From Alphaproteobacteria bacterium (GTDB lineage Bacteria; Pseudomonadota; Alphaproteobacteria; RF32; CAG-239): a DNA stretch of 64,000 bases. How positions within the stretch are numbered: position 1 is the stretch's first letter; every line of letters begins with the position of its first letter. Below the pieces are notes generated by a model, which did no database searches, had not been told where the DNA came from, and saw nothing but the letters and a program-made list of their open reading frames with translations. The translations under genes were made by a program, and so were the position numbers. Shown here one piece after another: positions 4,082 through 55,673 of the stretch. Location: assembly GCA_017457005.1 (NCBI GenBank), contig JAFTII010000020.1, positions 117 through 64,116 of the forward strand, written 5' to 3'.

Positions 4082-4789
4082 TTATGAGCTACTGCGTAAT
4101 AAACAATGTTGCGCAAAACTATAATAGTCATTCTTACTTATCACTAAATGGTCAAGTAAACGTATGTTTATGGATTCACATGCCTCATCTATGCGTTCTG
4201 TCATCGCAATATCTGATTTTGAGGGCTGAACATTGCCGGAAGGATGATTGTGAACCATTATAATGGCAGATGCACGATTGTTCATAGCGGCCTTTATTAC
4301 CTCTCGGGGATGAATAGCAACACTGTTTATTGTGCCTTTTTGCATTATCTCTTGCCCGATAACATGTAATTTGGTATCCAGATAAATCAGACGAAACTCC
4401 TCAATATCAGAATAGCACATACATGCACGGCAATAATCTATCAAAGAATCAATATTTAATATTACCGGTCCTTCTTGAGATTGAAGATTTTGCCATGCTG
4501 TACGTTGTAAAGCTGAATTTATAATCTTTAAAACCGTAACCGTGTTTTCTTTGATACCATTAATTGCACACAGGTCTTCTTTGTTGGCATTTATAACTCC
4601 AGAGAAATTGCCAAAACGAGAAATAAGAGTTTTGGCCAAAGGTTTTACATCACGACGAGGTATTGCTATAGTCAAAACCAGTTCAAGCAATTCATAATCA
4701 GCCATATCTTTGCCTTCTCCCAGCAAGAATCTTTGCCGAAGACGTTCCCTATGTCCCAAATAATCCGGTTGTGTTTCTGATATTTTCAT
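4082..4789 (-). CDS. radC: RadC-family JAB/MPN domain protein
   Basis: C-terminal JAMM motif HNHPSG..PS..D. N-terminal HhH-like region. Length typical of RadC. Confidence 0.85.
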   Translation of the reverse strand: MKISETQPDYLGHRERLRQRFLLGEGKDMADYELLELVLTIAIPRRDVKPLAKTLISRFGNFSGVINANKEDLCAINGIKENTVTVLKIINSALQRTAWQNLQSQEGPVILNIDSLIDYCRACMCYSDIEEFRLIYLDTKLHVIGQEIMQKGTINSVAIHPREVIKAAMNNRASAIIMVHNHPSGNVQPSKSDIAMTERIDEACESINIRLLDHLVISKNDYYSFAQHCLLRSSS

Positions 4790-4803: not shown

Positions 4804-5610
4804 CTATAATTTATATGGCGGCTTATCTAAACCTTGCGGAGAAAACGTAAATACTTCACAGCCATCTTTTGTCACAGCCAAAGAATGCTCAAACTGTGCA
4901 GATAAGGTTTTATCTCTTGTTACCGCCGTCCATCCGTTGGGCAAAATTATACCATCAGGTTTACCTATATTTATCATCGGCTCAATCGTGAAAAACATAC
5001 CCTCTTCCAATAATGCCCCCGTTCCTTTACGACCACAGTGCATAACATTAGGCTCATCATGAAAAACTTGTCCCAAACCATGACCGCAAAACATATCAAC
5101 GACAGAATAACCGTATTTATGAGCATATTCTTCAATAACCGCACCAATATCACCTAATCTGGCTCCGGGGCGAACGACATCTATTCCTCTCATCAGACAT
5201 TCATAGGTAACCTCGCATAATCTCTTGGCTTTGATTTTAGGAGTTCCGACATAATACATCCTGCTGGTATCTCCATACCAGCCATCCACAATTACGGTAA
5301 CATCTATATTTACGATATCTCCGTCAGCCAATTTGCGTTCATAATCAGGAATTCCATGGCAAATAACATGATTTATGGATATGCAGGTTGATTTAGGATA
5401 ACCACGATAACCTAAACATGCGGGAACTGCGCCGCGGTTAATTATAAAGTTATAGCATAAGTCATCTAATTCGCCGGTAGTAACACCGATATTTACATAA
5501 GGGGTTATATAATCAAGACATTCTGCAGCCAATTTTCCTGCGACTCTCATGCCGGCAAAATCAGCCATATCATCATGGATAGTTATTCCGTCTTTACGTT
5601 TGTATGCCAC
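4804..5610 (-). CDS. map: type I methionine aminopeptidase
   Basis: Typical MetAP-I blocks: GYRGYPKS.CISINHVICHGIP, DIVNIDVTV..DGWYGDTSRMY, FCGHGLG..FHE, FTIEPM. Confidence 0.9.
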   Translation of the reverse strand: MAYKRKDGITIHDDMADFAGMRVAGKLAAECLDYITPYVNIGVTTGELDDLCYNFIINRGAVPACLGYRGYPKSTCISINHVICHGIPDYERKLADGDIVNIDVTVIVDGWYGDTSRMYYVGTPKIKAKRLCEVTYECLMRGIDVVRPGARLGDIGAVIEEYAHKYGYSVVDMFCGHGLGQVFHDEPNVMHCGRKGTGALLEEGMFFTIEPMINIGKPDGIILPNGWTAVTRDKTLSAQFEHSLAVTKDGCEVFTFSPQGLDKPPYKL

Positions 5611-9120: not shown

Positions 9121-9828
9121 ATGTATAGATATTTGCTATGGCGATTAGCTCCGTTTTATGTTATCGCCCTGATATGCGAATTTCTGTCTTTTGGAATTTT
9201 GCTTGCTGTTGAGCAAAGTGTTGTAGATTGGTCTTTTTTGGCAATGATAAAAACTATCGGTGTGCTGCTTAAGACAACTACAATTGCTTTTTTATATATT
9301 ATGCTGCCATATATGACATATTTGTGTATGTTACCCAATAAATATATAAACTCAAAGTTTGATAAAAACCTGACAATGATTGTTTTTGCTGCTTTTGTAT
9401 TTTATACATTTTTTGAAGAGACAATGTCTTTGGTTTATTGGAATAATTTTTCGGCAGCATTTAACTCTGAAGTTGTGGAATATGTTTTGGACTTAAATGA
9501 AGTCATTGCTTCCTTGAGCAATAATTATATATTTTTTGCATATATTTTGGCTCTATTTGCCCTAACGCATTGGGTAGTAATAAAAAGCAAATGTTTTTTA
9601 TGGCAAAAATCGCTTAACTTCAGTCTTGCCAAAAGAATTATTTATTGGTTGATATATTTTGCCAGTTGCTTACTAATATTCTTTAATTGCAATGATGATG
9701 AGCTTAAAATAGACGAAAACCAAATCAATAATGAACTATCAAAAGATGGAACTTATAGCTTGGGACGCTCTTTTTGGAATAATAAAACTGATATTTATAA
9801 AGTTTATATATTAAAAAAGTCAAATTAA
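9121..9828 (+). CDS. multi-TM protein resembling only the N-terminal membrane domain of LTA-synthase/sulfatase-family enzymes (possibly a truncated gene)
   Basis: Five or so TM helices ending in NELSKDGTYSLGRSFWNN..DIYKVY. From memory this resembles the linker just before the sulfatase catalytic domain. No catalytic domain follows. Confidence 0.45.
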   Translation: MYRYLLWRLAPFYVIALICEFLSFGILLAVEQSVVDWSFLAMIKTIGVLLKTTTIAFLYIMLPYMTYLCMLPNKYINSKFDKNLTMIVFAAFVFYTFFEETMSLVYWNNFSAAFNSEVVEYVLDLNEVIASLSNNYIFFAYILALFALTHWVVIKSKCFLWQKSLNFSLAKRIIYWLIYFASCLLIFFNCNDDELKIDENQINNELSKDGTYSLGRSFWNNKTDIYKVYILKKSN

Positions 9829-9842
9829 TTACAAAAAATATA

Positions 9843-9871
9843 TTGACAAAATTTCCTAAATATGTTTTATA
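9843..9871 (+). promoter_or_regulatory. promoter of structured RNA unit 1 (TTGACA-N17-TTTATA)
   Basis: Consensus -35. Near-identical to the 22-nt copy at 10296. Confidence 0.5.
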
Positions 9872-9877
9872 TACGTC

Positions 9878-10204
9878 ATTGAATGAAATTATTTATAAAT
9901 TAGAGATAAAAAGTAGGAAAAGTAAGCGTGAATTACGTCTTCTTTAGCCAATAACAAAAAACACCCCTTACTTTTCCTACTTACGATATATAACAGAATC
10001 GAGAGAAGGCTTGTCTAAAAAACAAGGATGTGCTGCCATGATACACCTCTCTCGTTTCTGTTTTTGAAATATAACTGCCGCTTATAAGCTTAAGCTGCAG
10101 ATAAAATATAGAAGGTTTGGGTTTCCTTCTTAATAAAAATGCAACACCGATCGTTTTGCCATTCAGAACATAGCCACTGTGAAGTGCCTATGTTCTTTTT
10201 TTTT
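9878..10204 (+). ncRNA. candidate structured ncRNA, unit 1 (unknown family)
   Basis: Perfect 15-bp stem 9912-9926/9967-9981. 12-bp stem 9994-10006/10048-10060 with one mismatch. Hairpin 10111-10129. Terminator 10165-10204. No ORF or RBS. The 5' end is inferred from the promoter. Confidence 0.55.
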
Positions 10205-10243
10205 AATTGTTAAACATAAATGTTTGTAATTTTGTTTTTAGAA

Positions 10244-10276
10244 AGCATAAGAGTCGTGAGATTCTTATGCTTTTTG
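10244..10276 (+). terminator. second hairpin plus T-run between the two RNA units
   Basis: Stem agcataaga/tcttatgct, then TTTTT. Confidence 0.45.
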
Positions 10277-10295
10277 ATTTTAGCTCCAAAATACA

Positions 10296-10324
10296 TTGAC
10301 AAAATTCCCAAAATATGATTTATA
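10296..10324 (+). promoter_or_regulatory. promoter of structured RNA unit 2 (TTGACA-N17-TTTATA)
   Basis: Same hexamers and spacing as the promoter at 9843. Confidence 0.5.
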
Positions 10325-10330
10325 AGTTTA

Positions 10331-10712
10331 TAAATTAAAATTTTTATTAAACTATTGTGTGTGTGTCTGACAGAGAAAAATCACGCTTAAATCCTTTACT
10401 TTGCAACATTTTGCATGGTTTTTCTCTGTCTTTGTATAACATTGAACAGAATCGGAATAATGATAAACTTCGTTTACCATCTTTTTTCGTTTCGGTTTCT
10501 CTGGCTTCAATTAACGGGATCATAGCAGTATATCTTTTTTTGTTAGATTTCTGCCTTTAAATTTTGCTATGATTCCGTTGTGAAATATATCTACCGCTCC
10601 TATATGAGCCGTAGAAAGAAACTTCAGAAAGGACAGTTTTGGGTAATCTGCCTTTATCTGATTTACAAGCTCTTAAAGCACGACGGCTGTGAAGTCCTCG
10701 TGCTTTTTTTTT
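10331..10712 (+). ncRNA. candidate structured ncRNA, unit 2 (paralog of unit 1)
   Basis: Perfect 12-bp stem 10369-10380/10419-10430. 15-bp stem 10513-10527/10565-10579 with one G-U pair. Hairpin 10628-10655. Terminator 10677-10712. Shares the words acagaatcg, tttgggt and ctgtgaagt with unit 1, in the same order. Confidence 0.55.
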
Positions 10713-10824
10713 CTTTTAAATATTTTTTCGGAAATTTTGTCATTTTTAGTATTGCACATCGTGTAAAAATGTGCTATATATATAATCCTAAAATATATTG
10801 TTTAACATTATAATTTTTTTTATT

Positions 10825-11196
10825 ATGAAGAATTTTAATAAAGAAGAAGCTCTCGTAAAGTTCAGAAACTATGCAGAGCCAAGAAACATTACGTTGGATG
10901 AAACAACTATTGCTCTTTATAAGGTAGTAATCAAAGGAAAGAGTGCAATTCACGAAGCGGTGAAAGCTATTTCTCCGGAAGGATGGGTTGTAAATGAGAA
11001 GAGTACAGATTCTCAGCGCAAGTTCCATCCGAAAGGTTCAATCATCGTAACTCCTTTCAAGGGAAGTGTTGAGGATATGAAGAAAGCGAAAGCCCGTAAA
11101 CCGGAGTATGTCCCTGCTCTCACAGAAAATCAGGACTTTGATCCTCATTATAACCCTGACAGCGAGTATCCAACTCGTAGAGTATCTTCTTGGTAG
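10825..11196 (+). CDS. hypothetical protein (123 aa)
   Basis: Balanced, charged composition, followed by a terminator. No clear RBS. Start chosen at the first ATG. Confidence 0.45.
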   Translation: MKNFNKEEALVKFRNYAEPRNITLDETTIALYKVVIKGKSAIHEAVKAISPEGWVVNEKSTDSQRKFHPKGSIIVTPFKGSVEDMKKAKARKPEYVPALTENQDFDPHYNPDSEYPTRRVSSW

Positions 11197-13253: not shown

Positions 13254-13306
13254 ATTAGTTTCGGCTCCTGATTAATTTGTTGTCTGAATTATAATCTTAA
13301 ATACTC

Positions 13307-13347
13307 AAAAAGCAACAAGCTGTGGAACTTTCCACAGCTTGTTTGCT
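13307..13347 (-). terminator. intrinsic terminator (perfect 16-bp hairpin)
   Basis: agcaacaagctgtgga/tccacagcttgtttgct with a T-run on the minus strand. Overlaps the stop codon of the 165-aa ORF. Confidence 0.7.
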
Positions 13348-14462: not shown

Positions 14463-15476
14463 TTAATTTAAACTATTAATTGCTTTTAAGCATTCTTTAG
14501 GATACCTGTTTAATATATTATTTTTATTTGCAATATCTAATTTTGATACATACAACATACGTTGTTGGTAAAGAGATGTTATTAAATCTTCATCAGATAT
14601 TTTACTAACATCACCTTTCCAAGCATTACGAACAATTGTGGATGCTTTTCCATGTTGTACTGCTACTGAATACAATACGTCTTTTATAACCGGATGACGC
14701 TTTTCTAAATTAAGCCCTTTAATATCACTTATTTTAGCCAACAAAGGTTTTAGTTTTTTCTCAACTATAAAATCTGTCTGTGATTGATTAAAGTTAGGAT
14801 TTTTAGAGTTTGATTTCCATATATTTTCAAATTCATCAGTTTTAAGTTTGGCGGCATTCTCCCCTCCTGCTTTTATTAATTGATTTGCAAAATTTGTATA
14901 TTGAGGTGTGTTTTCTAAGAAACTAATATAGTCTTTCATTGTTCCTTTTTTGGTTTCTATTTGATATTTTCCATAACTATATCCTCCTGTTTTATCATAA
15001 CCTATTGCTGAAGGATTTCCATTAGATTCAAATTCTTCGCTTAATGAACCTAATTTATATCTATAATGCTTATCCATATATCTCTCCAGAGAGAATTCCT
15101 CTGCCGTACAACGGCAATTATAATCTTCTCCGGGGTGTCCTCCGGATGGTGGCTCATCCCATGCAAAAATTTCTCCATCTCGTTGGGCATGTTCTTCCCT
15201 TACCAAGTCATCCCCTTCTGTACGCCAAATATAGTAATTTTGCGGATTATCTTTCGCTTCCTCTAACATAATTTCTTGCAAATAAGGATTTGGAGTATCC
15301 GGACAGTCAACATCTATAGTTCTAACTTTAGTATCTGCTACAAAATCATCATCACGACCACGCGGATCAATATAGTACCACCGACTTTCTCCTTTTTGAG
15401 GATTTAATCGTTCCAACGGCATTCTTCCTCGCATTTTCAGTTCTAATTCTTCTCTTAAGCTTAAATCTTTTTTCAT
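14463..15476 (-). CDS. phage Mu F (SPP1 gp7)-like domain fused to a lysozyme/chitosanase-like C-terminal domain
   Basis: MuF C-terminal signature YIWRTEGDDLVREEHAQRDGEIF...PGEDYNCRC. The C-terminal half (SEEFESNGNPSAIGYDKTGGYSYGKYQI..G.....FL) resembles, from memory, VgrG3-type peptidoglycan-hydrolase domains. Confidence 0.6.
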   Translation of the reverse strand: MKKDLSLREELELKMRGRMPLERLNPQKGESRWYYIDPRGRDDDFVADTKVRTIDVDCPDTPNPYLQEIMLEEAKDNPQNYYIWRTEGDDLVREEHAQRDGEIFAWDEPPSGGHPGEDYNCRCTAEEFSLERYMDKHYRYKLGSLSEEFESNGNPSAIGYDKTGGYSYGKYQIETKKGTMKDYISFLENTPQYTNFANQLIKAGGENAAKLKTDEFENIWKSNSKNPNFNQSQTDFIVEKKLKPLLAKISDIKGLNLEKRHPVIKDVLYSVAVQHGKASTIVRNAWKGDVSKISDEDLITSLYQQRMLYVSKLDIANKNNILNRYPKECLKAINSLN

Positions 15477-15566
15477 TAAAACCTCCTTAAATCGTATTTT
15501 ATTTACTCAATATATACGAAAAACGTATTTAAAGTCAATACCGGTAAATATATTTTCATTTCACAC

Positions 15567-15595
15567 TTGCAAAACTGCCTGATTGCAGTTATATT
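15567..15595 (+). promoter_or_regulatory. ssrA promoter TTGCAA-N17-TATATT
   Basis: Read directly, about 7 nt upstream of the inferred precursor start. Confidence 0.5.
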
Positions 15596-15601
15596 GTAAA
15601 A

Positions 15602-16027
15602 GTTAGAGTTATCTGACTATGACACTAGAGGCTCTATGAAATAGGATATTTGGACCCGGGGGCAGTACCCGGCACCTCCACCAGTGCGAAGTCGCACAGG
15701 CACTATTTAGTTTTTACTCGCTCAACTCACAAGTTCGTTTCGCTGTGATTGCATCTTGTAAACGCTAAGATATTATTTTAAGTTAGTAACTAATGACTTT
15801 ATGGGGGTGACACAGGATTGACAGGTATCAGTAAAGATAGGTATGTCGTGTTCGGTGAGATACCACCGTTATCGGTTCAAATTAAAATGAATGCTAACGA
15901 TAATAACGTAGCACCTGTTGCAATGGCTGCTTAATTGTAGTCGCAACAAACTTAAATTCTTTGAGCTTTGGTTAGCTTAAAGTGAGGCTGTAGGGACTTG
16001 CCTAGCAACAGGAAAGTCCCCCTTTTT
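15602..16027 (+). ncRNA. ssrA: two-piece (circularly permuted) tmRNA precursor
   Basis: The acceptor piece ends ...CCGGG-GGCAGTA-CCCGG-CACCTCC-A-CCA at 15683. The coding piece starts GGGGGTGA at 15803 and pairs with CACCTCC, including a G3-U70 wobble. Tag reading frame gct aac gat aat aac gta gca cct gtt gca atg gct gct taa = ANDNNVAPVAMAA. Terminal hairpin 15993-16020 plus T-run. Confidence 0.85.
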
Positions 16028-16044: not shown

Positions 16045-16500
16045 ATGAATGAGTTTGAGATAAATTATGATAAATTAGTAGAAAAATCACTCAAAAATGT
16101 GGTAATTGAAGCTTTGAAAATTGCTGCTGAAGAAGGATTACCCGGAGAACACCACTATTATATATCTTTCAAAACCAATCATCCCGTAGCCAGAATATCC
16201 TCACAATTATTGGATCAATATCCGGAAGATATGACTATTGTATTGCAACACCAATTTGCAAACCTTATGCTTGGAGATGCTTATTTTGAAGTTGATCTTA
16301 GTTTTAGCGGAATTCCGCAAACATTGCGTATTCCTTATGATGCAATCACTTATTTTGCAGATCCGCATGCAAAGTTTGCTTTGAGTTTCAGTTATGACAA
16401 TGAGCAATCTGCCGCTATTGATACAGATAATGAACCTCCTGCCGAACCCAAACAAGCTCCGGTAATTTCTTTAGAAGACTACAGAAAAAAACATGCGTAA
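16045..16500 (+). CDS. sspB: ClpXP adaptor SspB (alphaproteobacterial type)
   Basis: LPGEHHYYISF.T..P...I...L...YPEDMTIVLQHQF..L......F.V.LSF.G. Acidic tail. Immediately downstream of ssrA. Confidence 0.8.
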   Translation: MNEFEINYDKLVEKSLKNVVIEALKIAAEEGLPGEHHYYISFKTNHPVARISSQLLDQYPEDMTIVLQHQFANLMLGDAYFEVDLSFSGIPQTLRIPYDAITYFADPHAKFALSFSYDNEQSAAIDTDNEPPAEPKQAPVISLEDYRKKHA

Positions 16501-55329: not shown

Positions 55330-55388
55330 GGGGTTCAAATCCCTCTAGTAGTATTTATATACAAAAATGGTGCCGGTTAAGGGATTTG
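55330..55388. repeat. 59-bp direct repeat, copy A (contains 21 nt of the tRNA-Thr 3' end)
   Basis: 58/59 identical to 55560-55618. Confidence 0.85.
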
Positions 55389-55510
55389 TTATCTTGCTCA
55401 TAAGCTCTGCTTTCAGCATTCGCTAACTCGCTTCGGTCACCGCCTTAGTAACGCTTGTTTCGCTTTGTTATCACTAGCTCACAAGCTAACAAAAGCGTAA
55501 CCTACGTTGA

Positions 55511-55559: not shown

Positions 55560-55597
55560 GGGGTTCAAATCCCTCTAGTAATATTTATATACAAAAA

Positions 55598-55618
<21 letters not shown>
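55560..55618. repeat. 59-bp direct repeat, copy B (overlaps the real tRNA-Thr 3' end)
   Basis: ggggttcaaatccctctagtaatatttatatacaaaaatggtgccggttaagggatttg. Confidence 0.85.

Positions 55619-55673
<55 letters not shown>

Follow-up and report, generated by a model that had tools for sequence, protein, structure and literature searches.

Among bacterial small RNAs (sRNAs), tandem paralogous genes that each carry their own promoter and terminator and whose products act in trans are represented by AbcR1/AbcR2 of the Rhizobiales, OmrA/OmrB and PrrF1/PrrF2, and sRNAs that are embedded in a 3' untranslated region (UTR) and possess a promoter of their own are represented by MicL within cutC and DapZ within dapB. 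The large protein-binding sRNAs include CsrB/RsmZ, CrcZ and 6S RNA as well as OLE RNA, which has the membrane partner OapA. The locus described here is a non-coding gap of 996 nt (positions 9829-10824) in a 64,000-nt stretch of DNA from an Alphaproteobacteria bacterium of the lineage RF32; CAG-239 (assembly GCA_017457005.1, contig JAFTII010000020.1, positions 117 to 64,116 of the forward strand), the whole of which is referred to below as the window. No open reading frame (ORF) within the gap exceeds 77 amino acids (aa), and the gap contains two self-contained genes, units 1 and 2, for heavily folded non-coding RNAs of approximately 330 and 380 nt. The best overall explanation, with a probability of roughly 0.6, is that they are two paralogous genes of one RNA family not in Rfam, each with its own promoter and terminator, whose RNAs act in trans.

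Tandem paralogous sRNA genes are a familiar kind, of which the present pair is an unusually long and hairpin-rich case. The likeness to AbcR1/AbcR2, OmrA/OmrB and PrrF1/PrrF2 lies in the same-strand paralogues placed side by side, in the sigma-70-type promoter and the intrinsic terminator with a long U-tail that each possesses, and in the retention of short single-stranded words while the rest of the sequence drifts. Unlike members of that kind, the present units are three to four times longer (330-450 vs approximately 80-150 nt), form five to seven hairpins, match no Rfam family by sequence or model and display no evident anti-Shine-Dalgarno-type seed. As with MicL and DapZ, the first promoter lies at the very end of a same-strand upstream gene, here p235, without an intervening terminator, so that the sRNA would share its terminator with the upstream mRNA; the upstream gene is likewise envelope-related (an LtaS-type domain, with PagP or glycosyltransferase neighbours in the related loci L140 and L127). 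In contrast to MicL and DapZ, the promoter follows the coding sequence instead of lying inside it, and two or more units occur in series.

With CsrB/RsmZ, CrcZ, 6S and OLE RNAs the units share the 300-450-nt size class, strong expression signals and many hairpins, and with ole/oapA they share the position of the RNA gene beside a gene for a small multi-pass membrane protein. They differ from this group in having no array of repeated binding motifs and no closed rod of the 6S type, and in belonging to an entirely different taxon. A further comparison is offered by CcnA, an sRNA of Caulobacter crescentus that acts through a short homopolymeric loop, a CCCC loop reported to pair with GGGG in the 5' UTRs of ctrA and gcrA (PMC8959179). 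In a similar manner of loop display, the present RNAs present the UUUGGGU loop and, in some lineages, a loop containing AACCCCAA. They have no sequence similarity to CcnA, differ from it in size and genomic context and exhibit the opposite loop polarity (G-rich here); the likeness is one of analogy only.

Conservation and structure of the RNA units

The closest AlaS loci are found in metagenome-assembled genomes of uncultured gut and rumen Alphaproteobacteria, some of which are deposited as 'Azospirillum sp.' or 'Candidatus Scatocola'. Contigs whose flanking proteins are identical to those of the window show 98-100% identity across the RNA region and thus add no comparative information. Datasets that yielded this DNA include SRR12529369, ERZ27256821 and ERZ28653980. 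When the units were compared with 80 related alaS loci by BLASTN and nhmmer, only the promoter region of one locus (L057) was matched; the family is too divergent for sequence search, and it was synteny that worked. A search for homologues of p235 gave 14 clusters (49-72% identity) whose contigs were inspected, and in 13 of the 14, L120 being the exception, p235 is followed by 0.4-1 kb of non-coding DNA with one or two units. In this way 16 further units were recovered from nine related lineages (L057/L119, L116, L121, L133, L124, L127, L130, L140 and L141) whose AlaS is 74-89% identical to that of the window, making 18 units with the window pair. An orthologue of unit 1 is present in L116. 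In L057 (AlaS 88% identical) a single unit lies between the p235 homologue and a homologue of the downstream gene p123; it has the same promoter, a different first hairpin (P1) and a fold z-score of -10.8. Its AACAGGAUAAUC.../...GGUUAUCCUGUU helix covaries, one of its loops is UAUUGGGUUU, and the loop of its terminator is GGGA. A covariance model of the third and fourth helices (P3-P4), which misses variants without P3 such as L057, added no copy from the window or from 94 loci, and a promoter-pattern scan of the same loci matched only the window and L057, a candidate in L114 having turned out to be coding sequence followed by a terminator. Every member that was found belongs to one narrow group of uncultured Alphaproteobacteria from gut and rumen, in which the RNA locus invariably comes straight after p235.

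The signals that delimit the units are their most constant part. The near-identical promoter blocks that a preliminary description of the sequence had noted at 9843 and 10296 exhibit 89% identity over 37 nt (9835-9871 vs 10288-10324), the layout TTGACA-N14-TGn-TTTATW can be read upstream of all 18 units, and across these units the promoter is more conserved than the RNA body. A generic promoter scanner called neither unit promoter, which is explained by a -10 hexamer (TTTATA) without an A at position 2; the support for the promoters comes instead from their conservation in all 18 units. A hairpin with a T-run closes each window unit, as had been described, the shared CTGTGAAGT being the CU/AG stem end that closes a GUGA tetraloop. 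Each unit possesses its own promoter and its own intrinsic terminator, both of which are kept in the homologues, and judging from their sequences all 18 units end in a hairpin followed by 7-9 U. Promoters of the TTGACAAAATTTC type also precede unrelated genes, for example a TspO-like gene (L059 5320-5440; near 5300 in many alaS loci), and the -35 element with its A/T-rich spacer is therefore a general strong-promoter form of this clade that is not specific to the RNAs.

The view of the locus as a duplicated structured RNA and not as coding sequence also held, in that helices and loop words are kept in the syntenic homologues with no coding-type pattern. Against dinucleotide shuffles, the minimum free energy (MFE) gave z-scores of -6.3 for unit 1 and -6.1 for unit 2 (-6.9 and -6.7 in an independent shuffle run), and scores from -4.1 to -11.3 were obtained for all 18 units. 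Nine of 11 control pieces of 350 nt from the same window fell between -2.7 and +0.8, and an outlier at -5.7 is accounted for by a long hairpin at 13300-13345. The syntenic homologues keep the promoter, helix order, loop words and terminator while the stem sequences change. This is most evident in P1, a perfect or near-perfect hairpin of 12-16 bp that occupies the same place in each unit and whose sequence is unrelated between lineages (for example AAGUAGGAAAAGUAAG, GACAGAGAAAAAUCA, CAAGAGGGUCAAAA, AAGGUCGAGGCA, AAGAACCGGGG and ACCGGAUAUGAG).

Compensatory change beyond controls, as expected of a structured RNA, was found in two alignments, with the proviso that the sequences are few and that the structures were derived from the same alignments. 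A sequence-only MAFFT alignment of five units of subfamily B (defined below) contains 65 pairs, with 89.8% of cells paired and 22 pairs changed on both sides; shuffles gave 9.9 +/- 2.1 such pairs (0 of 500 reached 22) and slid controls 3-7. In the P3-P4 module of nine B units, aligned with the covariance model and including both window units, 85.8% of cells are paired and 11 of 18 pairs have changed on both sides, a number reached by none of 500 shuffles, and slid controls had 21-50% of cells paired. The P3-P4 model scores unit 1 at 44.4 bits (E = 1.8e-9) and unit 2 at 53.3 bits (E = 9.7e-12). The corresponding alignment of subfamily A has 29 pairs, of which 13 are compensated. Among nine orthologue pairs, substitutions number 0.04-0.25 per site at paired positions and 0.18-0.51 at unpaired positions, such that paired sites change two to seven times more slowly. 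Selection maintains the helices even as the sequences that form them turn over.

Every stem listed in the preliminary description exists both as an inverted repeat and in the minimum-energy folds of the two units (Table 1). Two of its statements hold in part. Of the conserved words given there as unpaired, UUUGGGU does sit in the loop of P4, but AACAGAATCG is the 5' strand of a helix in both units, and CGTTTCNGTT (10052 and 10487), the 3' strand with which it pairs, is likewise conserved. Similarly, the stem sequences of the two units do turn over as stated, but their helices do not correspond one to one, since unit 2 has one extra hairpin; the second stem of unit 1 therefore corresponds to 10445-10498 and not to the 15-bp stem of unit 2. 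A third conserved block that had been overlooked, TGAAATATAWCTRCCGCT (10065 and 10581), opens a covarying hairpin (P3) with a conserved C.C or C.U mismatch.

The 18 units fall into two subfamilies, which in tandem usually stand in the order A then B. Subfamily B comprises 11 units, including both window units, and has the layout P1, RAUAUAA, P2, in some cases P2b, P3 (CURCCGC...GCYGYAG with a C.C mismatch), P4 with the UUUGGGU loop, and terminator. Subfamily A comprises seven units in which P1 (CAGAGGC.../...GCCUCUG) is followed by a CCAUGRG.../...CUCAUGG hairpin. Common to both are the promoter, the RAUAUAA linker and a pyrimidine-rich stretch before the terminator, and each of two further elements, YUGCCAW in the apical loop of a long hairpin and a GNRA tetraloop on the terminator, is found in 16 of 18 units. 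Fixed elements of the family are thus the single-stranded words RAUAUAA between P1 and P2, YUGCCAW in an apical loop and UUUGGGU in the P4 loop, together with the C.C mismatch in P3 and the GNRA loop of the terminator.

The statement that the units belong to no known family agrees with the Rfam search, which had been proposed as a check: Rfam 15 gave no match within 9700-10900 at gathering thresholds, and at E <= 10 only noise was returned, the best being a plant miRNA model on the minus strand with 28.6 bits against a cut-off of 74 bits. In seven related loci searched at E <= 0.1, the transfer-messenger RNAs (tmRNAs) were matched and the units were not. The units thus gave no Rfam match to RNase P, 6S, SRP, tmRNA, T-box, riboswitches, OLE, GOLLD, ROOL, HEARO, raiA or alphaproteobacterial sRNAs. 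The motif words were not found in the 200 of 408 supplement files considered from a catalogue of structured RNAs of the human microbiome (Fremin and Bhatt 2021, PMC8040213), and a full-text literature search found no paper on non-coding RNAs of these gut Alphaproteobacteria. Taken together, the units are very probably real structured RNA genes of an undescribed family.

Table 1. Features of the RNA locus and of its flanking genes in the window, with full-length sulfatases of related loci
Feature	Position	Strand	Details
p235	9121-9828	+	235 aa; upstream neighbour; stop 15 nt before unit 1 promoter, no terminator between
Unit 1 promoter	9843-9871	+	-35 TTGACA 9843-9848; extended -10 TG 9863-9864; -10 TTTATA 9866-9871; predicted start ~9878
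Unit 1 RNA	9878-10205	+	Subfamily B; ~328 nt
Unit 1 P1	9911-9926/9967-9982		Perfect core within stem 9900-9926/9967-9993
Unit 1 single-stranded word	9985-9993		GAUAUAUAA
Unit 1 P2	9992-10006/10048-10062		CUGCCAUGA at 10033-10041 in apical region
Unit 1 P3	10075-10100		C.U mismatch
Unit 1 P4	10111-10129		Loop UUUGGGUUU at 10116-10124
Unit 1 terminator	10165-10196	+	GUGA loop; T-run to ~10205
Orphan terminator	10238-10277	+	GUGA tetraloop; T-rich tail to 10283; between the units
Unit 2 promoter	10296-10324	+	-35 TTGACA 10296-10301; TG 10316-10317; -10 TTTATA 10319-10324; predicted start ~10331
Unit 2 RNA	10331-10715	+	Subfamily B; ~385 nt
Unit 2 P1	10369-10383/10416-10430		Fold stem 10369-10386/10413-10430
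Unit 2 P2	within 10445-10498		
Unit 2 P2b	10513-10527/10565-10579		15 bp including one G-U; UCUGCCUUUA at 10550-10559 in loop
Unit 2 P3	10590-10615		C.C mismatch
Unit 2 P4	~10623-10661		Loop UUUUGGGUAAU at 10637-10647
Unit 2 terminator	10675-10706	+	GUGA loop; T-run to ~10715
Inverted promoter-word copy	10717-10743		GGAAATTTTGTCA at 10730-10743
p123 promoter region	10717-10780	+	-35 TTGCAC 10752-10757; TG 10772-10773; -10 TATATA 10775-10780
p123	10825-11196	+	123 aa; downstream neighbour; small protein
Full-length sulfatase, L042	8743-10626		620-641 aa (range for the three sulfatases)
Full-length sulfatase, L059	8763-10628		As above
Full-length sulfatase, L136	2408-4330		As above

Possible roles and competing explanations

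Under the preferred reading, each unit would be transcribed from a strong sigma-70-type promoter with an extended -10 element and would end at its own intrinsic terminator. The perfect -35 element, the extended -10 and the conservation of the promoter beyond that of the RNA body suggest that the RNAs are made in quantity. They may then act in trans as riboregulators whose stable hairpins present conserved loops to mRNAs or to a protein, and the U-rich stretch and long U-tail at the 3' end could form a chaperone-binding module, as in sRNAs of the Hfq type with such a module next to the terminator. The RNAs may also arise as the 3' UTR of p235, since no terminator precedes the first promoter. 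As to how they would work, base-pairing in trans is tentatively ranked first, on the strength of base rates and of the single-copy, seed-like loops, and it is a possible mode that falls short of an expected one. Two pairings within the system were considered and rejected: duplex energies between the A and B units of the same genome lie within the shuffled range, and the complementarity required for kissing of the P1 loop (AACCCCAA) with the P4 loop (UUUGGGUU) occurs in some lineages only and is absent in L116, unit 2 and L119.

Several observations weigh against this reading or limit its detail. The ends of the transcripts are placed solely from the motifs of promoters and terminators. Folding of the reverse strand is about equally good, and the call of the strand consequently rests on the promoters, the T-runs and the G-U pairs. 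When single-sequence MFE structures were moved through pairwise sequence-only alignments, 252 changed pairs were kept and 309 broken, close to the null of approximately 0.40; this outcome is attributed to misaligned, fully turned-over stems and to spurious MFE pairs, and it makes the fine detail of the MFE structures and the alignments of variable stems unreliable. The architecture is a string of hairpins with no sign of junctions or pseudoknots. No element of the RNA is universal, P3 being absent in L119 and the B unit of L133, and the YUGCCAW hairpin in the A units of L140 and L141. Finally, UAUGGCAR, the complement of YUGCCAW, is a common Met-Ala start that is present at several gene starts in the window, and at 8 nt it is too short to count as evidence of a target.

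A role as a ribonucleoprotein (RNP) scaffold or as a protein-sequestering RNA is ranked second and is on balance unlikely. At least one protein would then bind at the C.C-mismatch hairpin and at the YUGCCAW and UUUGGGU loops; a conceivable partner is p235, by analogy with OLE RNA and OapA, or p123. The second rank is owed to the size of the units, to the hairpin with its conserved mismatch and to the close linkage with p235. A length of 300-450 nt with strong promoters fits RNAs of the CsrB, CrcZ or 6S type, a covarying helix that retains a mismatch typically marks the site of a protein or of a tertiary contact, the RNA locus adjoins p235 in the 13 clusters noted above, and tertiary docking is hinted at by the frequent GNRA loop of the terminators. 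CsrB, CrcZ and other RNAs that sequester proteins, however, carry 6-20 repeats, whereas each conserved word occurs about once, and at most two or three times, per unit; no short motif reaches the five or more copies by which a CsrB/RsmZ/CrcZ-type RNA would be recognized. Adjacency to p235 may moreover be synteny inherited within a narrow clade, and L120 possesses p235 without the RNA. As for p123, it follows the RNA locus in some lineages only, being absent in L124, L127 and L140, and is therefore not a necessary partner; it was rejected as an RNA-binding candidate, being a tiny family with a model confidence (predicted local distance difference test, pLDDT) of 72.5 and no significant fold match in PDB (best E = 0.45). 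A more far-reaching and improbable variant ties the RNA genes functionally to p235: the RNA pair would have replaced the sulfatase catalytic domain found in relatives and would either form a membrane-associated RNP with the p235 anchor, in a logic similar to that of OLE RNA and OapA, or regulate envelope remodelling in its stead.

It has also been considered whether the locus is a cis element: it might serve p235 and the convergent dut-thyA-folA operon as a structured 3' UTR, a stabilizer or a terminator insulator, or p123 as an attenuating leader. The lack, in most loci, of a terminator after p235 and ahead of the first unit, the convergent gene that follows the locus in L124, L127 and L140, and the position of the unit 2 terminator 110 nt before p123 are all in keeping with this. 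It has little probability nonetheless, as each unit possesses a highly conserved promoter that a 3' UTR or insulator would not need, p123 has its own conserved promoter beyond the terminator, and the internal loop words are conserved across species beyond the needs of termination. Nor does the locus have the arrangement of a leader, riboswitch or attenuator: unit 1 is followed by another unit, p123 has a separate promoter, and several units, at the three convergent loci, have no downstream gene on the same strand and hence cannot be leaders. The suggestion that the units are cargo or a remnant of a mobile or phage-derived element, made plausible by a gene with phage Mu F-like and VgrG3-like C-terminal domains beside the tmRNA approximately 4.5 kb away, by tRNA-fragment repeats in the window, by a 'Bacteriophage sp.' record that matches part of the tmRNA and by the apparent replacement of part of a gene, is very improbable. 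No match was found in 50,697 phage records; scans of IMG/VR for the promoter word and for the arms of P2 yielded at most chance matches, and a protein-anchored IMG/VR scan found no relatives. Neither the window nor 1.09 Mb of related loci contains another copy, the locus has no flanking repeats, integrase or transposase, and its chromosomal position is stable across the lineages compared.

Scarcely credible is the idea that the gap is coding or decayed coding sequence, either for small proteins or as a pseudogenized sulfatase catalytic domain, in spite of two circumstances in its favour: the gap of approximately 1 kb has the size of the missing domain and full-length orthologues occupy the same place after alaS in L042, L059, L060 and L096, and gene callers in public assemblies place a 58-aa minus-strand ORF inside unit 2 (10347-10523). 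When the four full-length orthologues and that of L136 were compared with all gaps, the best tblastn match had E = 0.19 and the best blastn match E = 1.3. Substitutions in the orthologue alignments are even over the three phases with no 3-base periodicity, most indel lengths (1, 2, 4, 5 etc.) are not divisible by three, tblastx finds similarity in each of the six frames, and the longest ORFs differ in strand and position between homologues. No ORF spans a unit, just as had been stated, the longest being 34 and 67 aa and not conserved. Homologous units do not conserve the 58-aa ORF as a protein, and it is probably an artefact of gene calling. Neutral decay, moreover, would not keep promoters, terminators and helices.

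Neighbouring genes and other features of the window

The gap is flanked by p235, directly 3' of alaS, and by p123. In p235 the five-helix membrane domain that forms the N-terminus of an LtaS-like sulfatase exists as a protein in its own right, which ends just after the NNELSKDGTYSL motif; p235 is well conserved, its 14 homologues sharing 56 invariant columns. The full-length orthologues that follow alaS in the four relatives named above are 620-627 aa long, with the Pfam Sulfatase domain at residues 273-540. The RNA locus occupies the place of this catalytic domain, and no protein or DNA similarity to the domain is left there. A scan of JGI metagenomes with the p235 profile returned only four distant full-length sulfatases. 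Because no terminator follows p235, read-through would make unit 1 its 3' UTR.

Two elements missed by the preliminary description lie between and beyond the units. The orphan terminator between them is kept in L116 (approximately 4630-4675), where it is preceded by a spacer of approximately 60 nt and no second unit is present, and it may serve as a fail-safe terminator or else be what is left of a lost unit. The inverted copy of the promoter word downstream of unit 2 was rejected as a minus-strand promoter, having neither a TG nor a -10 partner, and is probably not a promoter. The TTTTGTCATTTTT word, the inverse of the TGACAAAA found in the RNA promoters, lies just 5' of the p123 -35 element. 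Upstream of the p123 homologues of L116, L121, L130 and L133, TTTTGTCATTTTT with TTGCAY-N17-TATAWA after it is conserved, and the word may serve as a site for a common regulator or as an UP-like element.

Elsewhere the window encodes alaS, dut, thyA, folA, tmRNA, the Mu F-like gene, SspB, SpoT, GcrA, RNase J, BirA and Nuo subunits. The first six of these would be in keeping with a jumbo phage as the source of the DNA, a reading that was rejected: the phage records contain no match to the region, the relatives are alphaproteobacterial metagenome-assembled genomes, and SpoT, GcrA, RNase J, BirA and Nuo are encoded as well. The tmRNA is of the permuted two-piece alphaproteobacterial form (15563-16023; 196 bits) with an insertion of approximately 110 nt relative to the model, and is directly followed by sspB (16045-16500), which encodes the adaptor for ssrA-tagged proteins; the same pairing is found in L127 (7252-7629). 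The minus-strand gene with Mu F-like and VgrG3-like domains (14463-15476) abuts the tmRNA gene, and a 13-kb 'Bacteriophage sp.' record from human faeces (MT836065.1) matches 178 nt of the tmRNA at 82%, which suggests use of the tmRNA gene as an integration site. A direct repeat of approximately 58 nt (55330-55390 and 55562-55622, 232 nt apart) holds the 3' end of the tRNA at 55601-55673 (minus strand) together with a fragment that resembles the T arm of a second tRNA, in a region that folds unusually well (z = -5.6); the repeats look like attL/attR scars left by an integrative element that was excised or has decayed. Between dut and thyA, a 95-aa ORF with a GIY-YIG domain is present in one lineage only (L119 2230-2517; L057 10687-10974) and resembles a free-standing homing endonuclease beside thymidylate synthase. 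The long perfect hairpin AGCAACAAGCTGTGGAA/TTCCACAGCTTGTTTGCT at 13300-13345 separates folA from the next gene on the minus strand and probably acts as a terminator in both directions.

Significance for the clade

The region deserves annotation as non-coding RNA genes in place of a blank, and the spurious call of a 58-aa ORF should be removed from it. The locus offers a clean, testable case of a large sRNA family with two subfamilies in which the promoter and a few loop words are frozen while the helices are rebuilt in each species, and the frozen words amid helices that turn over mark the nucleotides that are likely to matter. The RNA genes sit where relatives encode the catalytic half of an envelope enzyme, which raises the question of how they arrived there. 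If abundant in metatranscriptomes, these RNAs would serve as activity markers of this clade of uncultured gut and rumen Alphaproteobacteria.

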